A stretch of DNA of 42,412 bases from a bacterium. Lineage in GTDB: Bacteria; Patescibacteriota; Patescibacteriia; SG8-24. The stretch is taken from the NCBI GenBank assembly GCA_043825985.1, contig JBDRRB010000004.1, forward strand, positions 1-42,412, written 5' to 3'. Shown here in pieces: positions 16,597-32,237 of this stretch. The number at the start of each line of letters is the position of its first letter. The first letter of the stretch is position 1. The translations under genes and the position numbers were made by a program. The notes beneath the pieces are model-generated. The model was not told the origin of the DNA and searched no databases. It saw only the letters and a list, made by a program, of their open reading frames with translations.

Positions 16597-18027
16597 TTGA
16601 CAACTAAAAGAAGAGGCAGATCACCGATTCGGGTCAAGTTGATTGACCATCCAACTAGGCGACCGGCGTCAATGGCCTGGCATAGGGCTAGGTCTTGCTA
16701 TCTCGACGAAGAAATAGGAATTCCAAGACAGATCGATGAGAGAAAACTTCAGCTCGTTCGGGGCGTTTTCGGTTCCGGTCACTTGACGCCGTTTGAGGGA
16801 GGGATGTTTGAGTTCAGGTTATGGAATATACCCGTTGGTGACGTGACCAACGGACTCCATCTGACTCATCCCTTCCACAACTCCACTCAGACCAGCGGTC
16901 GGTTCTGTCGGGGCATGTACAGCAATCCGGACCTTTCGGCGATTGCAGCTCACATCAGACATTTTTGGCCCGATGTATTGAGTGCATATCTGGATCGGGT
17001 GATGCGTTACGTAGATCAATGCAATCAGAAGTACTTGGGACTGCTGCCTAAGGCTGAGGAAGAAGCAAGACATTTGCTGTCTGTGGCTCGGCCTAATTTG
17101 AGAGGTGAGCGACTCGAGAAGATATCCAAAAAGGTGGCCCAGGAACAGTTGCGGATGTTGATTCCGGTCATCTTCCCGACCAGGCTCAACCACAGCCTCA
17201 GCCTGATCGCCCTGATTGCCATGTATCGAGTGGCCTGGACTCCGGCCCTGCGCGACATCACCGCTCAGATGAAGGATCAGGTGGTCAGTAAATGGCCCGA
17301 GCTTGAGGAGCTTTTTGGTCGGCCAGCCGGTCCGGAGGATGAGTGGTCATGTTCGCTTCCGGATGGTCTCCGTGAAGCGTCGGTCTACGATGAGCCGGAG
17401 GTAGTCGGTCCAGTTGCCGTCGATGGACTGGAACGTTTCGTACTGCCAGGCTCGGGCGACTTCGGACCGTTGGATCTGCTCCATTTTCGGCCGCAGTTGA
17501 TGGACGACAGGGTCGGCGGAATTAGGGTGCCGACCGTTCGCATGTCGTTGGCCACGTTAGGCCAGTTCCAGCGGCATCGGACCGTGCACCGCGGCACCCC
17601 TTCGTTTGTCGGAGGAATCTATGTGCCGCCGGCGGTCGAAGGATGCGGCGGTGCTGGAACCGCCAAGGAGGTCATGCAGACCTGGCTGGACCTCTCGAGT
17701 GAATTGCCGCCTACCCTGACCATGGCCATCGCCCCCTATGGGGCCGTCGTCGAACAGTCATATCAATCGTCGTTCTTGGCTCTGATCCACGAGTTTCAAG
17801 GGCGACTCTGCTGGGCCGCTCAGGAAGAGATTTCCAATCTGTCACGGAAGGTGCGGGAGGGGATAGTTGCCTCCACCGGTGTCTCAGCGGATCATGATTT
17901 GCTGCAGACATTGGCACCTCCATGCCACAAGGCCGGAAAATGCAGGGAAGGCAAGTCCCGCTACTGCGGACGCGACCGTTCGCCAGCGGCCCGGGCCGGC
18001 GACTACTTCCCGCGGCGGCTGGTCTGA
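16597..18027 (+). CDS. thyX: FAD-dependent thymidylate synthase-like protein, tandem ThyX domains
   Basis: GHLTPFE and HPFHNSTQTSGRF in the N-half; QFQRHRT, RLCWAAQEEI and PPCxxxGKCxEG..C in the C-half. SD GGGAGG before TTG 16597. Confidence 0.7.
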   Translation: MTTKRRGRSPIRVKLIDHPTRRPASMAWHRARSCYLDEEIGIPRQIDERKLQLVRGVFGSGHLTPFEGGMFEFRLWNIPVGDVTNGLHLTHPFHNSTQTSGRFCRGMYSNPDLSAIAAHIRHFWPDVLSAYLDRVMRYVDQCNQKYLGLLPKAEEEARHLLSVARPNLRGERLEKISKKVAQEQLRMLIPVIFPTRLNHSLSLIALIAMYRVAWTPALRDITAQMKDQVVSKWPELEELFGRPAGPEDEWSCSLPDGLREASVYDEPEVVGPVAVDGLERFVLPGSGDFGPLDLLHFRPQLMDDRVGGIRVPTVRMSLATLGQFQRHRTVHRGTPSFVGGIYVPPAVEGCGGAGTAKEVMQTWLDLSSELPPTLTMAIAPYGAVVEQSYQSSFLALIHEFQGRLCWAAQEEISNLSRKVREGIVASTGVSADHDLLQTLAPPCHKAGKCREGKSRYCGRDRSPAARAGDYFPRRLV

Positions 18028-18156
18028 TCGGACCGCATTGGCGCTCTCTCGTCTTCTCATTCGTTCATTCGCTCGGTCGTTCCCAGCTCGGGGGCGGCTT
18101 TTTTGTTCACCTGAACAGCATGCTGACTCGTCGGTCTCGGTTCCGTTTTTTCGCTG

Positions 18157-18165
18157 TGGTATAAT
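18157..18165 (+). promoter_or_regulatory. extended -10 promoter of the giant gene
   Basis: TG-G-TATAAT about 50 nt upstream of ATG 18215. Confidence 0.55.
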
Positions 18166-18214
18166 CGACCCAGAATTTTATTTCCACCGCGAGGTGGTAC
18201 GTAAAAGTTTTTCT

Positions 18215-21200
18215 ATGAAGAGAAGATCTTTGTTCAGACGCATGCTGCGTCGTCCGGGGCAGACCCTGCTGAGTCTGCTGCTCGTCCTGTCGAGCGGCCT
18301 CGGTTCGGTCCTGGTACCGTTGCCGGTTCGGGCGGCTTCGACCGTCACGGTCACGACCAGCGGGCTGATCAACGGCGAGTTCGCCGGATCGCCGGTGCCC
18401 GCCAGCTCGCCGGCAATTGCTGTCCTCAAGCTGTCGGTTACGGCTTCGTCTGCCTCGCAGTCGCTGAGCTCGGTGACCGTCAACTTCAGCGGCTCTGGCC
18501 TGGTACAGGGTGATTTCGAGGCCATCGCCACCGGCGCCAGCTCCGGCGTCGCTTTATATAATGATGGGGGAGGCACCGCCGGCAGCCTCGACGGGACCGA
18601 CTCCGTTGTCGTCCTGGCCGGCTCTCCGGGCTGGACCGGGGAGACGACCGGCATCACCCTCACTCCGGCCGCTCCGGTTTCCCTGGTCAGCGGCACGCCG
18701 GTCATCCTGTACGTCGTCATCAAGACCTCGGCCGCGTTGGTCGACGGCCATCGGATTGTCGCCTCGGTTCCGGCCAACGGGGTGGTGACCTCGGACGGAA
18801 ACGGTCCGGCCTCCACCTTCACCGCCTTTGACCTGCGGGCGGACACCGCTCCGGCCCAGATCACCCAAGTCAACGGCTTCGTCGGCAATGCGGTCATTGA
18901 TGTCCTGTTTAACAAGCCGGTGCAGAAGGTCGGCGGGGGCAACCTGCTCACGACCAGCTTCACCTACGTCGACGGCGGCGGTGCGGCCCAGACCATATCG
19001 TCCATCTCGCACACGGCCGGACAGAACTTCGCCCGGCTGACCATGAGCGCGGCCCTCGACGCCGAGGACCTGGACGGTACGCCGGCGACGGTCGCTGCCG
19101 CCTCTAATGCCGTCGCTGACATGGGCGGCAACGTCGTCGGCACTTCGGCGGTCGAGCTCGGAAGCCCCATCGACATCACCACTTCGACCATTCCGACGGC
19201 GATCGTCGGTACCGGCTACACGACCGGCAGCCCGCTGGTGGCCTTCGCTGCCGCCGGAGGTACCGCCCCATACACTTTCGCCGCAAACGCCGAGGCGGAC
19301 TCGACGGTCCTGTCGAACGCCGGACTGGCCATCGTGAACGACGGCGGCACCTACAAGATAACCGGAACCGTCCTGGACGTTCCGGGCAGCTATCCGCTCT
19401 ACGTCAAGGTGACCGACTCCTCCGGCACCCCGCAGGAGATGACCCGTCGCTTCACCCTGAACGTGGGGCAGGTCGGCGGTGTCGTGCCGGGAATCACGAG
19501 CGTCGTTCCCGGTGCCGCACCCGTCGGCGCATCGGCCATGACGGTCGGCATATCCGGATCGGCGACCAGCTTTTCTCCGTCCAGCACCGTCCAGTTCCTG
19601 AGCGGCGGCGCTCCGGACGCGGCCATGACCGCCACTGTTGTCGCGGCGTCGTCGACGACCCTGACCCTGTCGGTCAACGTCGGGGGCGGGGCCACCACCG
19701 GTCCGCATGACGTCCGGGTGACGACCGGCGGGGAGATCGTCGAGCTGCCGGGCGGCTTCGGAATCTTTCCGGTCGGCGACAGCGGACTGAACCTACAGAA
19801 TCCGACCGACACGGCGACCGGCATATCGATGCCGCCGAACTTCAACTTCAGCCCGAGCTCCAACGTCTCGGCGGCGACTTACCGCATCACCATTAAATCG
19901 ACCTCCAACTTTTCCGGCACGGCGCTCTGGGACTACGCCTTCCCTAAGCCGGCCGACGTCAACAACAGCAACGGCAGTCACTGCACCGCGACCGGCTGCG
20001 ACATCGGCTACGGTGCCGGCTCGTTCCGGATCATCACCCAGCCCACGCCGCTGTCGCCGAACACCACCTACTATTGGCAGGTGAGGACGTACAGCCAGTC
20101 GCCGGACGGCGTCAGTGATGCTGTATCGCCGCTCGAGGGAACTTCGGTCAGGAGCTTCACCACGATCACAGCGATGGCCGACATCATGCCGCCGAACATT
20201 CGGCACCGCCCGGTGTTCCAGGCTACGGCAAGCAGCGACCTGAACCTGTTCGCCCGGATCGACGACAACCTGGCTACGACCACTACCACGCCGGCCCTGT
20301 CCGCCACCATAAACTACTGCGCCGGTGCGGGGTGCGACCCGTCTTCCGGAACCCAGGCCGCCGGCACTTTCGTCGGCAACGGCTACTTCCGGTTTACGGT
20401 ACCGGGCGCGACGGTCGGCGTCGCCGGTACGGTGGTCAGGTACTACCTGAGCGCGTCCGACGGGACAAATACTGCCACTTTTTACGATTTCGGTAGCACT
20501 CCCTTCACCCTAACTTCGGTTGCCGCCGGCGCGAGCAGCATCGCCGGTACCGTCCATGACGGCTCCGACGCGTGTCCGGCCGGCGTGCAGGGCGCGACGG
20601 TCTTCGCCGAGGGTACGGGCTTCACCGCGACCACCGACGGGTCGTGCGCCTACACCCTGTCCGGCCTGTCGGCCGGCATCTACGACGTGGTGGCGCTGAA
20701 GTCCGGGTATTCCGACCGGGTGATGAACGGCATTCCGGCCGGATCGTCCGGCATCGCCTTCCGCCTGCCGGAGGGCTTCGGCGGCGGCTTCGGCGGCGAC
20801 GGCACCAAGCCGCACGTCATGTTCACCGGCCCGGGGGACAACATGTCGAACATTCCCGGCGGCGACCCGAACTTCCTGACGTTCCTGGTGTTCGACAAGC
20901 CGATGAGCCAGACGTCGATCACCACGACCGGCAACCTGACCGTCAATGAGATCAACCAGGCGACCGGCGAGTTGACCGACATAACGTCAAAGGGATCCTG
21001 GACCTACTATCCGACGACGGTCGGACTGGACCGCCTTCCTCCGGTCAGCTATGCGGCAGCGTTTTCCTTCTCGCAGAGCGGCTGCGGCGGCGCGCCCTGC
21101 TCCTACGGCGACGGCAAGACGATCGCCGTCATCGTCTCCGGGTCGGTCACCGACACGTCCGGCAATCCGGTCATGGGCAACCAGCCGGACGGTTCGTACT

Positions 21201-24200
21201 CGTTCACCTTCTCGACCGGCACCACCTATTCGGGCAGCTTCGCCGAAGGGGAGACCTTCGGCACCGGCGAGTTCATCCCGCCGCACGTCACCGGAATGAC
21301 TCCGCCGCCGGGCAGCCTGGACGTGCCGATCGACCGCAAGATAGTGGTCAGCTTCTCCGATGCCATGGCCGACGATACGGTCGGTACATATCTTCTTAAG
21401 AGCTTTATCAAGATCTACTCCGTTTCCGGCACGACTGAGACCGACGTCTCGTCGTCTCTCATCAGCTCGACATCGCTCGACGCGACCAAGCGAAACGCCA
21501 CCTTGACCCTGACCGGCAGCCTGACCGCCTCTACCCGCTACCGACTCAAGGTGTTGGCCGGTGCCAAGGCGGCGACGGGGCTGACCATCGGTCCGCCAAA
21601 TTCGGGCAGTACGGTGATGTTCACCGGGGAGTTTAAGACCGGTACCGGAACCGACGTCGGTGCGCCGACCGTGACCGGGACGTTCCCGGACGCCAGCGCG
21701 ACCAATGTCCCCGTCAACCTCAACGCCGTGAACGTCGGGTTCAGCAAGGACATGGACGCCTCGACCATTTCGACCAGCACCGTCTACCTGTCGATCGGAT
21801 CGACGTCGGTCAACGGCACTGTCGAGTACCGCCCGTTCGAGCGGACGGCCTTCTTCGTCCCGCGGTCGGCGCTCAACGCGAACACGACCTACACGCTCAA
21901 CGTGACGACCGGCGTCCAGGCTCTCAACGGAACGGCACTGGCGTCGTCCGAGTCACGGACCTTCACTACCGGATCGGCCGACTCGGCCGCCCCGTCCGTG
22001 CAGTTCGGCAACGCCGACGACTTCTCGTTGGCCGTCACCTTCTCCGAGCCGATGAACGCCGCTCGGGCCACCGACACCCTGAACTTCGCCGCGAGCGTGC
22101 TCAAGCCGGCCAACTGGACCCTGAAGTACGCGACAGTCGGCGAGGACTCCTCGGCCGGTACGGCGATCACCGTTCCGTCCTCCGCCACCTTCAACTACGA
22201 CCAGGTGACGAACACCGTCGAGATCGCCGGCTATCACGGGGATGACCTGACACCGGCTACCCTACGCGGCAAGGAGCTCTACGTAGTAGTGACCGGAGTC
22301 AAGGACCTGTCCGGAAATTCCATCGCGACCGATGGTGGGGCCAACACCGCCAAGATGGTGATCCTGAACAGCGCCGACACTCAAGGCGCCCTCGGTCCGA
22401 TGGGAATGTCCGGCGATGCCTTCTCCGGTCAGGGCGGGTTCGTTCCGGACAACTTCGACTCCGGCACGTTCGGCTTTGCCCCGCCGGTCGAGGTCCGTCC
22501 GTTCAACACGATGCCGGGTCAGATAACGACCTACGGCATACGTCTGCCGGTCTCGCAGCAGATCCCGTCCGGCGGCGCGATCGTAGTCACTTTCCCGGTC
22601 GGCTTCGACGTCTCGGCCGCACGCCAGGACGTGAACAGCCCGATGCGGCAGGACCTCAACGGTCCGGGTTCAGGCACCGTCACCTTCAAGTGCAATCCAG
22701 TCGGTGCGCCGACCGGCGCCTCCTGTTCCGGCACGGCCAATGCGGACGATACCGGTGCGGCCCAGGGCGGCCTGGCCGGCGACGGCGTGGTGGTCGATAC
22801 GGCCTCGCGCAGCGTCAAGGTCTACCTGTCCGCGGCGACCAACGTCGAGGGACATGACTTCCTCAGCATCGACATCGCGGGAATCAAGAACGCCACCGTC
22901 CCGAAGGACATGAACACCTCGGGCTACACGGCCGACGTCAAGACCAAGAACGGAACGACGCTGGTCGAGTCTCTGACCTCGATGCCGTTCTTCATCCAGT
23001 CCGGCGGCAGCGGCTCCTTCACCCTGAGCGGCACCATAACCGCCACCGGGAACGTCGCCAGCGGCACGATGAAGGTCTATCTCTTCTCTCCGCTCACCGG
23101 ACCGCTTGAGGCCACGACGGCCGACTTCTCCGGCGGGGAGACGGCAGCCTACAGCTTCTCCCTGCTGCCGGCGGGGGACTACATGATCTCGACCGACCAG
23201 ACGGTGCTGATCGACTCGGCCGAGTTCGTCGGCAAGTCCATGCCGGAACGCGTCGCCATCTCCGCGAACACCACCTACAACATGACCCTGGCCAGCGTGT
23301 CCGCCGGAGGCACGGCCGTCACGGTAAACGTGACCGGTCCGGCCAACGAGCCGCTGGATATCTTCGCCGGGTCGCCGACCGGGTTCCGCGTCCGGCAGAT
23401 TACGCTGAACGGCGGCGGCACCGGTACCACGACGCTCAACCTGCCGGACGGCGAGTGGAGCATCGGCGTCGGTCCGCAGATGCCGAAGGGCTTCACCGGA
23501 GCCCCGCCCGCGCCTTCCTACCTGCCGCCGCGCAACAAGCAGGCCAAGATCGCCAATCCGGCCTGCACCATAGACGGTAGCGTCACCTGCACCGCCGCCT
23601 TCACGCTGACTGCCTCGGACAAGACCATTCGCGGCCTGGTCAAGGACGGCTCCGGTCGGGTCATCGCCAACGCCGAGGTGTTCGCCTACTCGCCGAACGG
23701 CGGTTTCGGGACCCATGCGCAGAGCGCGACCGACGGCAGCTTCACCCTGAACGTGGTCGACGGAAGCTATGTTGTCGGCGCCTTCGTGCCGGGCATGCCA
23801 AACTCCAAGGAGGTTCCGGTAGTCGTGACCAGCCATGCCACCACCTACCTGCTGCTCGACGGCGCCACTACGGCGATCACTCCGGCCGCTGCCGCCACCT
23901 CGTTCATCCTGAAGGTCGCCAAGCCCGACTACACCATTTCCGGTCGGGTGACCGACGGCACGAGCGTGGTCAAGGGTGCCTCAGTCTATGCCTACAAGAC
24001 CAACGGTCCGGGCCATGCCGACGTGCTGACCGACAGCTCCGGCAACTACACCCTGTACGTCAGCGCCGGTACCTGGAACGTCGGGACCTTCCTGCCGCAG
24101 TACGGCCGCCTGGCCGAACAGTCGGTGACCGTCTCGACCGCCAACGTCACCAGCATCAACTTCTCGCCGTCGCAGACCGGCACCGGGACTTTCTATACCG

Positions 24201-27100
24201 TCTCCGGCTCGGTCACCTCGGGTGGATCGCCGGTCGTCGGGGCCTTCGTCCGGATCGCCGGGAACAGCACCAACAACGAGGTCACGACCGGCACCGACGG
24301 GGCCTACAGCATGCGCGTTCCGGCTTGCGCCACGGCCAGCTGCTACACGCTCAAGGCCTTCGCTCCCGGCATCGGCGAGCTTCCGCCGCTGACGCCGTTC
24401 AGCCTGACCTCCGACGCCTCCGGAAAGAACTTCGCCGTGGCCGCGCCGAGGACAGTCACCGTAACCTTCTCGTCGCCGGTCACCCGGGCCTTCATCGACA
24501 TGTTCGCCACGACCGGCTCCGGAGCGCATGTCGACGTGGTCAGTTCAGCGACCGGAACCCTGTCCCTGCCTGACGGCAGCTATCGGGTCCGGATCGACGC
24601 TCCGGGCATGTCGATCTCGCCGTCTGACATCAGCGGCGACGGCTACAACAGCTCGACCGGCGTCTTCACCGTATCGGCCGCGAACATCGCCCTGAGCGTG
24701 ACCCTGCCGACGCTCCGGACGATAACCGGAACGGTCACCGACGGCGCAGACAACATCGCCAACGCCTGGGTCGAGGTGGTCGACCCGACCAACGGCATCC
24801 ATTTCGGCGCCCAGACCGACTCCACCTCGGCTCCGGGCACAAACTTCAGCCTGACTCTGGCGGACGGAACCTACTTCATCAACGCCATGAAGCCCGGCTA
24901 CTTCCGCCAGCCGACGACCCTGGTGGTGAACGGCGCCACCCCGGCCCAGACCATCACCCTGTCGTCCGCCTCGACCACGATCTCCGGTCAGGTGCTCATC
25001 GGCAGTTCCGGTGCCTCCAACGCCTTCGTTCGCGGCGACAAGATCGGCGGCGGCTTCTCCGGCACTCAGGCCGACGCCAACGGCAACTACGTCCTGCCGG
25101 TCGACTCGGGCCTGTGGAAGGTCTATGCCGTGGCTGAGGGCTACCAGGAGGCCGGATACACCAGCAACCCGATCGACGTCACCGGCGGTTCGGTGATCGG
25201 CAAGAACATCACCTTGGCCACGGCCGTGAACGTCGCGCCGCCGCAGTCGAGGCCGATCACTCCCGCCTCGGGCGGAACGATCGAGGACGACACCGCCGGA
25301 CTGCGGATGACCATACCGGCCAACGCCCTCGGTACCTCCAGTTCGTCCGGAATGATCACCGCCCGGGAGACGAACAACGTCCGCTCGACCAACACCGCCA
25401 ACGTGGTCATGGTCTACGACGCCCAGACTAACTCCTACATTCCGGTCGCCAAGGACGTCTCGGCCACCGACGCCGACGGAAATCCGATCACCAACCTCGA
25501 CGACTCGATCAGCCTGGAGATGGACTACACGGTAGCCGAGCTGGCCGCCACCCGTTCGGCCACCGACTCGTCGATCGACACCCGTGCCGAGGCGGAGATG
25601 CTGACCATGGCCTACTGGGACGCCACCAACCAGAGCTGGACGGCCCTGCCGAGCACGGTGACCTTCCGCGACTCGGACCGCAGCATCGTCAACGAGCCGG
25701 CCGACAACCTGTCGAACGTCTCGATCGTGACGGTCTCGGCGACGACGGACCACTTCTCGCTCTACGCGCCGATCGTCTCGACCGACCCATCGGCCCCGTC
25801 CACCCCGTCCGGCCTGGCCGCCACTGCGGTCACGACCGCCCGCATCGACCTCAGCTGGACGCAGACCGCGGGGGCGACCGGCTACGACATCTACCGGAGC
25901 ACCTCGTCCGGCGGAACCTATACCCGCCTGGGCAGCGAGCCGACCGTCAGCTCCGGCTCGACCGTGTCCTATAGCGACACTGGGCTCAACTCCTCGACCA
26001 CCTACTACTACAAGATCTCGGCCGTGAACGGCAGCGGCGAGTCGGCCTCGTCGTCCGCGGTCAGCGACACCACTCAGTCTGGTGGCAGCTCGAATCAGGC
26101 CGCGACGGTCACCCTCTCCCTGCCGAACGGCGGCGAGGTCATCACCGCCGGCTCGACCTACCGCGTCATGTGGGGTACCGGCGGATCGAACATCCAGGGC
26201 GTCGACGTCCTGCTGTCGACCGACGGCGGGTCGACGTTCCAGACGACCGTCGCCTCGATGGTCGGCAACAACGGGTACTACGATTGGTCCGTCCCGTCCT
26301 CCCTCTCGTCGGCGACGGCCCGCATCAGGGTTGAGGCAGTCGTTGGCGGCAGCGTGGCCGCATCCGACTCGAGCGAGGAGAACTTCATCGTCCGGTCCTC
26401 CGGTTCCGGCTCCAACGGTGGAGGCGGAGGGGGCGGAGGAGGCGGCAGCACTCCGGCGTCGGATTCAAGCACGTCTTCCGCGGACGGCGATTCGTCCGAG
26501 GCGGAATCAGGGTCCGAATCGTTCGAGGACACCGAGTCCTCTTTCCCGACCGGTACGCATGAGCGCGTCGCTTACTCGGCCGACGAGATGGATGCCCCGT
26601 CCGCCGACCCGAACATGTCGGGCGCGTTTGACCGCAGCCTGGCCGTGATCTCGACGCCGACCATCGACGTCGACCTGGGAATCCTTCCTCCGCCGGTCGA
26701 GATCCGTCTGCCCTGCGTCGGCGGAAGCCTGTTCAAGACCGCGGGCAGCCCGGCCGTCTACTACTGCGGCAAGAACGGCCGGCGCTACGTCTTCCCCAAC
26801 CAGAACGTCTACTCGACCTGGTTCGAGGGGTTCGGCGGAGTGCTGACCGTCTCGCCCGACGACCTAGCGGCGGCACCGCTCGGCGGCAACGTCAACTACC
26901 GCCCCGGCGTCCGGATGATCAAGGTCCAGTCCGATCCCAAGGTCTACGCCGTCTCGAGGAACGGTCTCCTGCGCTGGGTGTCCAGCGAGGAGCAGGCCCG
27001 TTCGCTCTACGGCGACGACTGGAACCGTCAGATCGACGACCTGAACCCGGCGTTCTTCTTCTCCTACTCGATCGGTGATCCGATCGGCTCCGGAGAGTGA
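18215..27100 (+). CDS. giant (~2960 aa) secreted surface protein: Ig-like, carboxypeptidase-regulatory-like and FN3 domains with a CPR-type C-terminal module
   Basis: Signal peptide, T/S/G-rich beta repeats (ISGRVTDG..V.GA.VYA), Big_5-like units (V.FSxxM), FN3 (LSWTQ..GYDIYRS..TYYYKISA), poly-G/S linker, and terminal GSLFK..AVYY..GRRYVFPN..LYGDDW. Confidence 0.9.
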   Translation: MKRRSLFRRMLRRPGQTLLSLLLVLSSGLGSVLVPLPVRAASTVTVTTSGLINGEFAGSPVPASSPAIAVLKLSVTASSASQSLSSVTVNFSGSGLVQGDFEAIATGASSGVALYNDGGGTAGSLDGTDSVVVLAGSPGWTGETTGITLTPAAPVSLVSGTPVILYVVIKTSAALVDGHRIVASVPANGVVTSDGNGPASTFTAFDLRADTAPAQITQVNGFVGNAVIDVLFNKPVQKVGGGNLLTTSFTYVDGGGAAQTISSISHTAGQNFARLTMSAALDAEDLDGTPATVAAASNAVADMGGNVVGTSAVELGSPIDITTSTIPTAIVGTGYTTGSPLVAFAAAGGTAPYTFAANAEADSTVLSNAGLAIVNDGGTYKITGTVLDVPGSYPLYVKVTDSSGTPQEMTRRFTLNVGQVGGVVPGITSVVPGAAPVGASAMTVGISGSATSFSPSSTVQFLSGGAPDAAMTATVVAASSTTLTLSVNVGGGATTGPHDVRVTTGGEIVELPGGFGIFPVGDSGLNLQNPTDTATGISMPPNFNFSPSSNVSAATYRITIKSTSNFSGTALWDYAFPKPADVNNSNGSHCTATGCDIGYGAGSFRIITQPTPLSPNTTYYWQVRTYSQSPDGVSDAVSPLEGTSVRSFTTITAMADIMPPNIRHRPVFQATASSDLNLFARIDDNLATTTTTPALSATINYCAGAGCDPSSGTQAAGTFVGNGYFRFTVPGATVGVAGTVVRYYLSASDGTNTATFYDFGSTPFTLTSVAAGASSIAGTVHDGSDACPAGVQGATVFAEGTGFTATTDGSCAYTLSGLSAGIYDVVALKSGYSDRVMNGIPAGSSGIAFRLPEGFGGGFGGDGTKPHVMFTGPGDNMSNIPGGDPNFLTFLVFDKPMSQTSITTTGNLTVNEINQATGELTDITSKGSWTYYPTTVGLDRLPPVSYAAAFSFSQSGCGGAPCSYGDGKTIAVIVSGSVTDTSGNPVMGNQPDGSYSFTFSTGTTYSGSFAEGETFGTGEFIPPHVTGMTPPPGSLDVPIDRKIVVSFSDAMADDTVGTYLLKSFIKIYSVSGTTETDVSSSLISSTSLDATKRNATLTLTGSLTASTRYRLKVLAGAKAATGLTIGPPNSGSTVMFTGEFKTGTGTDVGAPTVTGTFPDASATNVPVNLNAVNVGFSKDMDASTISTSTVYLSIGSTSVNGTVEYRPFERTAFFVPRSALNANTTYTLNVTTGVQALNGTALASSESRTFTTGSADSAAPSVQFGNADDFSLAVTFSEPMNAARATDTLNFAASVLKPANWTLKYATVGEDSSAGTAITVPSSATFNYDQVTNTVEIAGYHGDDLTPATLRGKELYVVVTGVKDLSGNSIATDGGANTAKMVILNSADTQGALGPMGMSGDAFSGQGGFVPDNFDSGTFGFAPPVEVRPFNTMPGQITTYGIRLPVSQQIPSGGAIVVTFPVGFDVSAARQDVNSPMRQDLNGPGSGTVTFKCNPVGAPTGASCSGTANADDTGAAQGGLAGDGVVVDTASRSVKVYLSAATNVEGHDFLSIDIAGIKNATVPKDMNTSGYTADVKTKNGTTLVESLTSMPFFIQSGGSGSFTLSGTITATGNVASGTMKVYLFSPLTGPLEATTADFSGGETAAYSFSLLPAGDYMISTDQTVLIDSAEFVGKSMPERVAISANTTYNMTLASVSAGGTAVTVNVTGPANEPLDIFAGSPTGFRVRQITLNGGGTGTTTLNLPDGEWSIGVGPQMPKGFTGAPPAPSYLPPRNKQAKIANPACTIDGSVTCTAAFTLTASDKTIRGLVKDGSGRVIANAEVFAYSPNGGFGTHAQSATDGSFTLNVVDGSYVVGAFVPGMPNSKEVPVVVTSHATTYLLLDGATTAITPAAAATSFILKVAKPDYTISGRVTDGTSVVKGASVYAYKTNGPGHADVLTDSSGNYTLYVSAGTWNVGTFLPQYGRLAEQSVTVSTANVTSINFSPSQTGTGTFYTVSGSVTSGGSPVVGAFVRIAGNSTNNEVTTGTDGAYSMRVPACATASCYTLKAFAPGIGELPPLTPFSLTSDASGKNFAVAAPRTVTVTFSSPVTRAFIDMFATTGSGAHVDVVSSATGTLSLPDGSYRVRIDAPGMSISPSDISGDGYNSSTGVFTVSAANIALSVTLPTLRTITGTVTDGADNIANAWVEVVDPTNGIHFGAQTDSTSAPGTNFSLTLADGTYFINAMKPGYFRQPTTLVVNGATPAQTITLSSASTTISGQVLIGSSGASNAFVRGDKIGGGFSGTQADANGNYVLPVDSGLWKVYAVAEGYQEAGYTSNPIDVTGGSVIGKNITLATAVNVAPPQSRPITPASGGTIEDDTAGLRMTIPANALGTSSSSGMITARETNNVRSTNTANVVMVYDAQTNSYIPVAKDVSATDADGNPITNLDDSISLEMDYTVAELAATRSATDSSIDTRAEAEMLTMAYWDATNQSWTALPSTVTFRDSDRSIVNEPADNLSNVSIVTVSATTDHFSLYAPIVSTDPSAPSTPSGLAATAVTTARIDLSWTQTAGATGYDIYRSTSSGGTYTRLGSEPTVSSGSTVSYSDTGLNSSTTYYYKISAVNGSGESASSSAVSDTTQSGGSSNQAATVTLSLPNGGEVITAGSTYRVMWGTGGSNIQGVDVLLSTDGGSTFQTTVASMVGNNGYYDWSVPSSLSSATARIRVEAVVGGSVAASDSSEENFIVRSSGSGSNGGGGGGGGGGSTPASDSSTSSADGDSSEAESGSESFEDTESSFPTGTHERVAYSADEMDAPSADPNMSGAFDRSLAVISTPTIDVDLGILPPPVEIRLPCVGGSLFKTAGSPAVYYCGKNGRRYVFPNQNVYSTWFEGFGGVLTVSPDDLAAAPLGGNVNYRPGVRMIKVQSDPKVYAVSRNGLLRWVSSEEQARSLYGDDWNRQIDDLNPAFFFSYSIGDPIGSGE

Positions 27101-27116
27101 CGGTCGGCAGGAAGTA

Positions 27117-27152
27117 AGAGGGGCGGCCTCCCAGACGGGAGGTCGCCTCTTT
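27117..27152 (+). terminator. intrinsic terminator of the giant gene
   Basis: GGCGGCCTCCC/GGGAGGTCGCC stem followed by T residues. Confidence 0.7.
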
Positions 27153-27317
27153 GGTTCAAACCAAAAAGACGGTTCGACCGTCTCTGTCGCGTCACCTGCC
27201 GTCGTTATTGCCCACCCCCGCAAGGCACTGATCTCTTTTCTGGATAGAAAACGCAGGACCGGAGTATCCAGTCCTGCTAAGTCCCGTTGGCCACCGGTTC
27301 ACGGCGAGCGCGGCGTG

Positions 27318-27506
27318 TCAGGTTGCCTTCGGGTTCAGGGTCTGGCTGTCATTGGTGGAGCAAGAGCCGGTCATTTTGAGGTGACCCGGACCCTCGGTTG
27401 TCACGCCTTTGCCAACCGACGAGCTTCTCCCGGCGTCCGTATTCTCCGTTGGACTGCCACGAGCCTGCTCGGTCATCGAGGTTCTTTCTCGATTGATCGT
27501 TTCCAT
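27318..27506 (-). CDS. 62-aa small orphan ORF
   Basis: SD GGGAGG, a strong promoter, and a downstream hairpin GCAGGACTGGA/TCCGGTCCTGC with a T-run. Confidence 0.5.
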   Translation of the reverse strand: METINRERTSMTEQARGSPTENTDAGRSSSVGKGVTTEGPGHLKMTGSCSTNDSQTLNPKAT

Positions 27507-27535
27507 GATGGACCTCCCTGTCACATGGCATGGGT

Positions 27536-27590
27536 AAGATAGCAAAGCGTCCTCTTTGTGGCAATTCGATTTAGCCTTATTTGTGGATAA
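27536..27590 (-). promoter_or_regulatory. sigma70 promoter with perfect DnaA box
   Basis: Minus strand: TTATCCACA (27590-27582), then TTGCCA (27564-27559)-17 nt-TATCTT (27541-27536) with extended TG. Confidence 0.65.
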
Positions 27591-27624
27591 GTTTTTCTGT
27601 TTAGGTAGCGACAGCTGAATTTGT

Positions 27625-27653
27625 TTGATTTATTTTTTATCTCTTTGTAAGAT
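27625..27653 (+). promoter_or_regulatory. sigma70 promoter of the 328-nt RNA
   Basis: TTGATT-17 nt-TAAGAT; predicted start about 27660-27661. Confidence 0.6.
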
Positions 27654-27660
27654 AGCCCTT

Positions 27661-27988
27661 GCTTGGCGAGTGAGAGGAATAAGCATCTCGGGTACGCCCG
27701 TAGGAACCCCTGAAAGCGCCAACGGCGCGAGAAAAAGGTTCCGCTGCTTCCCGAGAAACTTTAAAGGGGGTGCGTAGACCTTGTCTGCGCATAGCCCAGA
27801 CGGTCGGCTAAGTCACCTCAGAAACACTCACTGCGTCGTAGTGGGGTGCGAGAGGCGGTCGATGCCTCCGGTGACCTCCGTTCGGCGGAAAACTGAGATA
27901 CGCTCTCAGTTTGCCGGTAAAAACGGTATCCCTGACCGTGAGGACAGGACATACCTCGGGTAGGGTCGCGGTACCCATTTCGCCAAGC
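27661..27988 (+). ncRNA. candidate large structured ncRNA of unknown class (~328 nt)
   Basis: 5' GCTTGGCGA pairs with 3' TCGCCAAGC. At least 8 internal helices, its own promoter and terminator, and no credible ORF. Confidence 0.65.
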
Positions 27989-27992
27989 GTCT

Positions 27993-28025
27993 TGAGCAGG
28001 TCGATCTTCGACCTGCTCATTTTTT
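27993..28025 (+). terminator. intrinsic terminator
   Basis: Perfect 12-bp stem TGAGCAGGTCGA/TCGACCTGCTCA followed by T6. Confidence 0.85.
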
Positions 28026-28077
28026 GTTCAAAGAGCCGACCGTGTTGGCGGTCGGCTTTTGGTTCGCATCCGGGGCT

Positions 28078-29340
<1,263 letters not shown>

Positions 29341-29494
29341 AGGGTGTCGGGTCAGTGATTTGTCGTTACATTATAGACCGACGTCTTGGCGGCGGCCAAC
29401 CGGCAGCCTTATCAGCCCGTTCGCCTTGGGCCGTGCCGTTCATAGGTGGTGCGTTGTCAGTAACGGCCCGTCTGGGCCGGTGTCGCCTGACCTT

Positions 29495-29878
29495 ATGAAC
29501 GACGAGCAGATGAAAAACGAATCGCCCGATCTCTATCGGGTGGCGCGCCAGGGCGGGACAGAAGCGCCGTTCAGCGGCGAGCATTGGAACCGGCATGAGA
29601 GGGGCGCATACAGCTGCCGAGTCTGCGGAGCTCGGCTGTTTGACTCCGAGACGAAGTTCGACAGCGGGACCGGCTGGCCCAGCTTCGATCGGGCCCTGCC
29701 CGGCGCCGTCGAGTACCGTCCTGACATGAGTCACGGCCTGGAGCGGACCGAAGTGGTCTGCGCCGGCTGCGGGGCTCATTTGGGGCATGTCTTCGACGAC
29801 GGTCCGGCCGAGACGACCGGCCGGCGGCACTGCATCAATTCGGTCTGCCTGGACTTTGCCCGGGACCAGGATTCGTGA
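29495..29878 (+). CDS. msrB: peptide-methionine (R)-S-oxide reductase
   Basis: GTEAPFSG, CxxC, SGTGWPSF, HLGHVFDDGP and RHCINS. Confidence 0.95.
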   Translation: MNDEQMKNESPDLYRVARQGGTEAPFSGEHWNRHERGAYSCRVCGARLFDSETKFDSGTGWPSFDRALPGAVEYRPDMSHGLERTEVVCAGCGAHLGHVFDDGPAETTGRRHCINSVCLDFARDQDS

Positions 29879-29915
29879 CCGCCTCGTCCACGTCGGAATT
29901 GAGGGGGAGCCGTTA

Positions 29916-29944
29916 TTGACAGCTTTCGACTGATGGTCTAAGGT
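29916..29944 (+). promoter_or_regulatory. sigma70 promoter of the 230-nt RNA
   Basis: TTGACA-17 nt-TAAGGT. Confidence 0.6.
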
Positions 29945-29953
29945 CCTTCTTGC

Positions 29954-30183
29954 CGATGGTTAAAGGGTCCTTCGCCTTCGCGGCAGCCGAAACGCCAGAA
30001 TGTCTTCGGCGGATTCGCGGAGCCCTCCGTCGAAGACGGCAGCCGAGCTGCCCTCATATCGGGGGACCCCAGGTCTTAGGTGGCCGCCGGTGGCGGTCAG
30101 TCTATGGGGCTGACGCGCGCCAGAACGGAGCGCCTGCCTAACGGTGGGATTCGACTCCGTTGGCCAGCCTGAAGTCACCATCG
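29954..30183 (+). ncRNA. candidate structured ncRNA of unknown class (~230 nt)
   Basis: Closing stem CGATGGT/ACCATCG, several internal helices, a promoter upstream and a terminator immediately downstream. Confidence 0.55.
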
Positions 30184-30187
30184 TCTT

Positions 30188-30225
30188 TGCGGGTCGGGAA
30201 GATTTTCCGGCCCGCATTTTTGTTT
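30188..30225 (+). terminator. intrinsic terminator
   Basis: TGCGGGTCGGGA/TTCCGGCCCGCA stem followed by TTTTTGTTT. Confidence 0.8.
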
Positions 30226-30425
30226 GCGAAGCCTAAACCACGGGCGTGAGCCCGGGGAGTGTCATTTTGTAACAGCTGCCCTTTAGTGCGGTGCCGCAGG
30301 CGGAGCAGCGATGGTACGGCAAGACGAAGAAGCTTTTAGGTGGTCGCATCTTGTTTGGAAAAAGGAAACCCCGCTTTTTTTCGAAATCAAAAGAGCCACC
30401 CCTTCAGGTGGCTCTCGTTTTCTGT

Positions 30426-32237
<1,812 letters not shown>

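Follow-up and report, generated by a model that had tools for sequence, protein, structure and literature searches.

A candidate stand-alone structured RNA in a variable genomic island of a groundwater Patescibacteria species

Several structured non-coding RNAs of bacteria, among them the raiA motif RNA, OLE, ROOL, GOLLD and HEARO, are orphans whose function is unknown or has only recently begun to emerge. They are stand-alone, ORF-free, multi-helix molecules of several hundred nucleotides with a promoter and a terminator of their own, and they often reside in variable or mobile regions. The candidate RNA described here, which lies in a variable island of a bacterium from the patescibacterial lineage SG8-24, resembles them in all these respects. 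Unlike them, it has no Rfam match at any threshold tried, and whereas those families were delineated through conservation and covariation in numerous genomes, it has no known relative. A further point of reference is 6S RNA (RF00013), which is likewise non-coding and in which a closing stem joins the 5′ and 3′ ends, and whose abundance, stability and protein binding are proposed here for the candidate as well. In contrast to 6S RNA, the candidate is about twice as long, is predicted to be multi-branched instead of forming a rod with a central bubble, gives no RF00013 signal and is not conserved even within its genus. RNase P RNA (RF00010) and tmRNA (RF00023) are similar to it in size, in possessing a closing helix and multiple hairpins, and in what appears to be a high abundance. 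However, neither model matches it, and both RNAs are found elsewhere in the same genome with strong scores.

The host is a groundwater bacterium with a tiny genome, and its assembly (G000; 1.127 Mb in 82 contigs, 61.6% G+C) is rated 100% complete. The window analysed in this study is a stretch of 42,412 nucleotides from this assembly. Within it, the RNA unit occupies the right half of a long non-coding stretch. The features of the unit and its immediate surroundings, with helices and pair probabilities (P) taken from the predicted fold, are the following:

27100–28078: non-coding stretch of about 980 nt without coding periodicity, between the end of a 3077-aa ORF and a convergent protease gene
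27625–27653, + strand: promoter-like site read from the sequence, with TTGATT (27625–27630), a 17-nt spacer and TAAGAT (27648–27653)
27661–27990, + strand: RNA body, enclosed by a 9-bp helix (27661–27669 with 27980–27988)
27686–27756, + strand: 5′ domain, a three-tier long hairpin of UCUCGGG/CCCGAGA (27686–27692 with 27750–27756), GGAACC/GGUUCC and GCGCC-AAC-GGCGC; P 0.69–0.92
27770–27792, + strand: 10-bp hairpin with a CUU loop and two G-U wobble pairs on this strand; P at least 0.90
27812–27875, + strand: central domain, GUCACC/GGUGAC around hairpins 27827–27845 and 27852–27868, as in the minimum free energy (MFE) structure
27890–27912, + strand: hairpin AAACUGAGA-UACGC-UCUCAGUUU; P at least 0.86 for 8 pairs
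27931–27948, + strand: hairpin CCUG-A-CC / GG-A-CAGG capped by GUGA (GNRA type); P 0.63–0.65
27993–28025, + strand: intrinsic terminator from the terminator scan, with a perfect 12-bp stem (27993–28019), a 3-nt loop and a T6 tract
28034–28061, no strand assigned: second G+C-rich hairpin read from the sequence, between the terminator of the RNA and the convergent protease gene

The original prediction had described this region as a free-standing, helix-rich RNA gene of no recognisable class, and a terminator, the lack of an ORF and the lack of an Rfam family all agree with that description. Its promoter, TTGATT-17-TAAGAT, is present, albeit weaker than had been implied. By hand count it agrees with the sigma-70 consensus at 8 of 12 positions and is therefore absent from the output of our promoter scan, which had a threshold of 9 of 12, so that we regard it as a weak sigma-70-like promoter. 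No other part of the area is as AT-rich as the stretch in which it lies (GC 0.28–0.40 per codon position versus a genome mean of 0.62), and the site resembles a TTGACC-17-TATGTT element upstream of the RNase P gene in the source genome. The organism does, then, employ promoters of the sigma-70 type for stable RNAs. The pairing postulated between the two ends of the molecule was borne out: the 9-mer GCTTGGCGA at 27661 is complementary to TCGCCAAGC at 27980, and the corresponding RNA helix (GCUUGGCGA/UCGCCAAGC; 27661–27669 with 27980–27988) is predicted with a pair probability of at least 0.84. The terminator, which begins four bases past the 3′ arm of the closing helix, was recovered as a perfect 12-bp stem by the terminator scan, on the + strand only; 7 of its 12 pairs are G-C, and its tail reads TTTTTTGTTC. 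The hairpin downstream of it (28034–28061), which gave a partial terminator-like alignment with Hrs13, is probably the terminator of the protease gene or a back-up terminator.

The 330-nt body has an MFE of −140.6 kcal/mol, compared with −118.6 ± 5.4 kcal/mol for dinucleotide shuffles (z = −4.10), and none of 100 shuffles was as stable. Among 16 control windows of 330 nt, 13 had z-scores from −1.72 to +2.19; the other three (27001, 28001 and 30001; z −2.7 to −4.6) all contain terminator hairpins or non-coding parts of the same island. As the minus strand of the body folds about equally well (z = −4.32), the fold energy does not assign the strand. The + strand was assigned because the T tract is found only there and because five G-U wobble pairs, distributed over three hairpins, would become A-C mismatches on the opposite strand. 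With a pair probability above 0.5 taken as support for a helix, nine of the helices proposed in the original prediction are supported. About ten helices in total lie inside the closing one. Two others fared less well: UAGCC/GGCUA is weaker, has a competing pairing and is missing from the MFE structure, and the outer GUCACC/GGUGAC helix of the central domain stays below 0.5 in the ensemble, where the two inner hairpins reach 0.61–0.78. The multi-helix architecture is a thermodynamic prediction from one sequence, no relatives having been found that could show covariation. Directly after the 5′ arm of the closing helix, a purine-rich segment of 16 nt (27670–27685) is left unpaired. A GGUCG loop motif occurs three times in the body, as do several other 5-mers.

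The RNA unit shows no coding signal. It contains no credible ORF, as had been foreseen: on the + strand there is no ATG-start ORF of 20 or more codons within the transcript, Pfam gave no match for the three longest internal ORFs, and the GC3 of the internal ORFs is 0.45–0.63 versus 0.80–0.95 in the neighbouring S8, MsrB and BipA genes. That the unit is instead the mRNA of a small protein, either a 60-aa TTG-start ORF (27781–27963) or another small frame, is very improbable. The TTG at 27781 is preceded, at a distance of 11 nt, by an AGGGGG stretch that might serve its translation, but the GC3 of this frame (0.63) is below that of the neighbouring genes, it has no Pfam match, and its start codon would be buried within the predicted 10-bp hairpin. 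In metagenome contigs, only 3 of 303 pattern stretches for the translated ORF passed tblastn, with 47–50% identity over 32 aa, and we regard these three loci as chance-level matches; a covariance model of the RNA (R1, see below) found nothing at any of them. In viral contigs, none of 10 pattern matches was confirmed for the 60-aa ORF and none of 27 for a 51-aa ORF on the minus strand.

Comparison with catalogued RNAs places the unit in an uncatalogued family, although a stand-alone non-coding RNA is in itself a known kind of thing. Rfam 15 gave no match at the gathering score across the whole window. In E-value mode (E ≤10), the region 27550–28100 yielded six weak matches, the best two on terminator hairpins and the others with E-values of 0.36–7; this check had been proposed with a divergent RNase P in mind, and it returned neither that nor any other significant match. 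Hrs13 (25.4 bits versus a gathering score of 52) and sbrA (25.3 versus 45) were dismissed as terminator look-alikes, and a ZMP-ZTP riboswitch match was dismissed as well, being on the minus strand and scoring 19 bits versus 39 (E 0.83). A riboswitch or other cis-regulatory leader does not fit, since the terminator is followed by a second hairpin and then, 3′ end first, by a convergent gene on the minus strand, and no riboswitch family reaches its threshold. Neither RNase P RNA type A nor tmRNA matches the region (E ≤10 for the former), and ARAGORN predicts no gene in the window; the genome's own copies are located on other contigs, namely RNase P RNA at C19:11120–11560 (179.9 bits) and tmRNA at C1:6048–6439 (108.2 bits). 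This confirms the earlier statement that the unit bears no RNase P, tmRNA or SRP signature, the SRP models RF00169 and RF01854 being absent from the six matches. Literature searches for catalogues of patescibacterial (CPR) non-coding RNAs turned up no description of such an RNA, although one may have been published.

Classes defined by repetition were rejected too. The RNA is not a member of a hairpin-repeat family (REPIN- or MITE-like), as it is present in a single copy and blastn of the unit against its own genome (word size 7, both strands) returned, besides the self-match, only chance matches of 16–30 nt. It has no internal family of direct repeats. Guide arrays of the CRISPR or TIGR type were not found, the 27000–30500 interval holding no tandem repeat save two 9-nt doublets inside the protease gene. 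A CsrB-like sponge was rejected: about five GGA motifs were counted by eye, close to the estimated chance number, and most of them are in stems.

That the unit is a highly diverged form of a housekeeping RNA (6S or SRP RNA) appears extremely improbable. Models RF00013, RF00169 and RF01854 find nothing anywhere in the source genome, and the RNA appears to be abundant. Yet no SRP or 6S model matches the region even at E ≤10, the molecule is predicted to branch repeatedly where 6S RNA forms a rod with a central bubble, and for SRP RNA no Ffh or FtsY gene was found whose product it could bind. Furthermore, the RNA has no relative in 60 related genomes and is absent from genomes of the same genus in which tmRNA is readily found at 89–90% identity, an absence that speaks strongly against this reading.

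The SRP machinery of the host deserves a remark in its own right. The models RF00169 and RF01854 find nothing in the source genome, and the former finds nothing in 26 related genomes either (the source genome counted). The Ffh M domain (PF02978) is without a match in the source genome, as is the SRP54 GTPase domain (PF00448). Across 41 genomes of the class, the latter gave only partial P-loop matches, over model positions 2–61, and at E ≤1e-10 a phylum-wide sample of 81 genomes yielded none; the control genomes were matched in 14 of 14 cases. A six-frame motif scan for SRP proteins produced junk frames only, and the best tblastn match of Arthrobacter FtsY and Ffh in the source genome had an E-value of 0.064. 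Ffh and FtsY do appear in public annotations of Patescibacteria. The failure to detect the machinery thus points either to a remarkable loss or to some property of the genome copies searched.

In our reading there is moderate, though indirect, support for a discrete, abundant transcript from the unit; by the rule of the alignment tool, contigs of this kind amount to a weak hint. A stretch of 901 nt (27400–28300) was looked up in public sequencing runs, and the contigs of four runs were aligned to it. An RNA library from sediment (X3) contains one contig of 325 nt that is identical to 27676–28000 (0 differences), and an RNA library from an estuary, generated in another study (X4), contains one of 216 nt that corresponds to 27674–27887 with 1 difference. 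Both contigs begin 13–15 nt inside the predicted start. The end at 28000 falls inside the palindromic stem of the terminator, where a word-based assembler would break. Neither library has anything over 27400–27673 or 28001–28236, uncovered parts of such libraries not being evidence of silence. It is this coverage of the unit and not of its flanks that points to a discrete and abundant RNA, on the basis of assembled contigs of a depth of about 4 that give no strand, ends or level and that might include DNA carry-over. In terms of the proposed metatranscriptome check, the RNA contigs of the two studies cover only 27674–28000. A contig from a DNA run (X2) extends from 27759 through both terminators into the protease gene, up to 28169. 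Another run (X5) contributed one contig of 151 nt with 2 differences, which shows presence only. A further run (X6), with 0.07 of the words of the stretch, carries no weight as evidence, and two RNA runs (X7 and X8) from the study behind the likely source sample contained next to none. Matches at 28237–28300, seen in all runs, stem from protease genes of other organisms and have loose ends on both sides. Altogether, the sequence of the RNA is unchanged (0–2 differences) in runs from five studies.

Searches for relatives were negative throughout. BLASTN of 27625–28025 against 60 related genomes returned only matches of 38 and 22 nt, and the 38-nt match, in one of the same-genus genomes (G001), was rejected as a relative because it lies inside a 607-aa ORF. 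In a positive control, the same search with the 392-nt tmRNA identified the ortholog in four of five relatives, at 90% and 89% identity in the two genomes of the same genus and at 72% and 67% in two further genera. Given the success of this control, a conserved RNA of such size would have been detected. Covariance model R1 (330 positions, 99 pairs), whose reach is limited because it derives from one sequence and a predicted structure, was run on 37 genomes of the order, 151 of the class and 151 of the phylum, overlapping samples that each include the source genome, and it recovered the source genome only. The same model detected nothing beside 40 relatives of the adjacent protease. Phage and plasmid records gave no match to the RNA, and an exact 22-nt pattern was negative in metagenome and viral contigs, collections that may omit records of the source genome or of very near ones.

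The corresponding place in sister species is informative. In both same-genus genomes (G001 and G002), the end of the giant 3077-aa gene and bipA are about 4.4 kb apart, and between them lie genes for an AAA ATPase, a 695-aa protein and QueH. This interval shares nothing with positions 27086–30450 of the window (blastn, word size 7), and R1 with filters off retrieved nothing better than 29-nt hairpins of about 10 bits. The source genome has only paralogs of these interval genes, of about 31–52% identity, elsewhere. The RNA, present in a single copy in the source genome, is therefore missing from the syntenic place in both species, which indicates that it is dispensable for the lineage, and it is probably a species-specific accessory gene known from one species. 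In this point the original prediction went too far: it had envisaged a large structured RNA of CPR bacteria in general, and the BLASTN and covariance searches across Patescibacteria that it had proposed produced no homolog.

The island (27100–30430) lies between the 3077-aa gene and bipA and comprises the RNA, the S8 protease gene, msrB, a second ORF-free unit and a repeat copy. Its features, including the upstream neighbour, are:

17867–27100, + strand: 3077-aa ORF, ending 560 nt upstream of the RNA
within 27250–27564, − strand: promoter-like site TTGCCA-17-TATCTT, TG-extended and matching 9 of 12 positions, pointing away from the RNA
27277–27253, − strand: terminator-like hairpin, about 275 nt past the minus-strand promoter-like site
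28078–29340, − strand: secreted subtilisin-like protease (Peptidase_S8, 233 bits) with a signal-peptide-like N-terminus
29495–29878, + strand: msrB (SelR, 162.5 bits)
29917–30225, + strand: second ORF-free promoter-to-terminator unit, with TTGACA-17-TAAGGT (29917–29945), the unit proper at about 29950–30225 and about 270 nt closed by CGAUGGU/ACCAUCG
about 30189–30225, + strand: terminator of the second unit, with a 13-bp stem and a T tract
30217–30270: dispersed repeat of about 50 nt, just past the terminator of the second unit, from blastn against the whole genome

The 3′ end of the 3077-aa ORF is conserved in both same-genus genomes (73–82% identity at the nucleotide level), and several paralog-like matches to it lie on further contigs. 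The protease has no relative from the host phylum among the 40 loci retrieved; the best of them is an Arthrobacter (Actinomycetota) protein with 55% identity, followed by proteins from Zixibacteria and Bacillales, a pattern that suggests horizontal acquisition of the gene. A 154-aa ORF on the minus strand (29366–29830) overlaps msrB on the + strand and was discarded as spurious. The second ORF-free unit folds with an MFE of −137.9 kcal/mol (z −3.56), has no Rfam match and has no match in five related genomes at E ≤1e-5; as it shares only hairpin-size matches with the first RNA, it was rejected as a paralog. The repeat next to it has at least seven copies with 80–97% identity, on contigs C69, C46, C25, C6, C1, C15 and C10, as well as copies on many contigs of both same-genus genomes, and is probably part of dispersed hairpin-repeat families. 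A possible minus-strand unit upstream of the RNA (27530 down to 27250) contains a doubtful 64-aa ORF with a GGGAGG ribosome-binding site. This ORF has no Pfam match and a weak codon periodicity (GC3 0.69, GC1 0.45), the unit folds with a z-score of −2.31, and no contig of the RNA libraries covers 27400–27530; the stretch between 27250 and 27564 may represent either a small gene or a further non-coding transcript. Integrases, transposases and boundary repeats were not seen in 26500–31000. Overall, the island looks like the product of gene replacement and horizontal transfer.

A rival reading is that the RNA has no function. It might be a transcribed but functionless remnant of an island rebuilt by gene replacement, for instance what is left of a leader whose operon was lost, or G+C-rich DNA in decay that folds well by chance, and we consider this a real possibility, albeit an unlikely one. 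It would agree with the occurrence in one species only, with the different genes between the giant gene and bipA in the two sister genomes, with the length of about 980 nt without coding periodicity (27100–28078) and with the fact that other non-coding windows of the island also fold well (z −2.7 to −4.6). On the other hand, the unit is organised, with a closing helix that opens precisely at the predicted start and a perfect terminator 4 nt after that helix, the sequence is unchanged (0–2 differences) in the runs of five studies, and the contigs of the RNA libraries fit the limits of the unit and not its flanks. Decidedly less probable is a horizontally transferred 'ornate' large RNA of a mobile or accessory element, similar to ROOL, GOLLD, raiA or OLE, which may self-assemble or serve the element. 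The location in a variable island, the protease next door with its closest relatives (among the 40 loci) outside the phylum, and a second ORF-free promoter-to-terminator unit in the same island would all suit an RNA of this kind. However, no integrases, transposases or repeat boundaries were seen in 26500–31000, and neither phage and plasmid records nor viral contigs nor the surroundings of the 40 protease relatives contain a match. Rfam holds models of ROOL, GOLLD, raiA and OLE-like RNAs, and it has no match to this one.

The RNA itself is probably real and expressed. Our preferred explanation, held tentatively and at somewhat less than an even chance, is that 27661 to about 28025 on the + strand constitutes a genuine stand-alone accessory gene, specific to the species, for a stable structured RNA of about 365 nt that would bind protein in trans. 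By analogy with 6S, Y and raiA-type RNAs, the molecule would act as a stable protein-binding scaffold or decoy. This role is suggested because the molecule is almost wholly helical within one closing stem, has no long complementarity in the genome and is apparently abundant. We think that an sRNA acting by seed pairing is less likely than such a scaffold or decoy. There is only a slim chance that the purine-rich single strand at 27670–27685 or the hairpin loops make it a base-pairing regulator: it resembles classical sRNAs in having its own promoter and a Rho-independent terminator, and the 16 nt past the closing helix are unpaired, but a length of about 365 nt with almost complete pairing is atypical for seed pairing, and blastn against its own genome (word size 7) found no match beyond chance length.

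A wider version of the scaffold reading, to which we give a small chance, is that the RNA represents one of many fast-evolving, lineage-specific RNAs of about 350–400 nt in Patescibacteria, which would have one architecture and one role and sequences too divergent for family models. The members of such a population would share the same layout: a promoter, then a core of numerous short hairpins within a single closing helix, then a terminator. They might, for instance, be abundant RNAs that bind protein or self-assemble, are linked to a symbiotic way of life and are exchanged along with accessory islands, and the variable island studied here may hold a second one.

The RNA would gain importance only if a partner or a function is found, or if the orphan RNAs of the phylum prove to be related. 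Genomes of Patescibacteria are tiny and leave little room for dispensable DNA. Should an abundant structured RNA of 365 nt differ from one species to the next within a genus, this would point to accessory RNAs as part of the way in which these organisms adapt.
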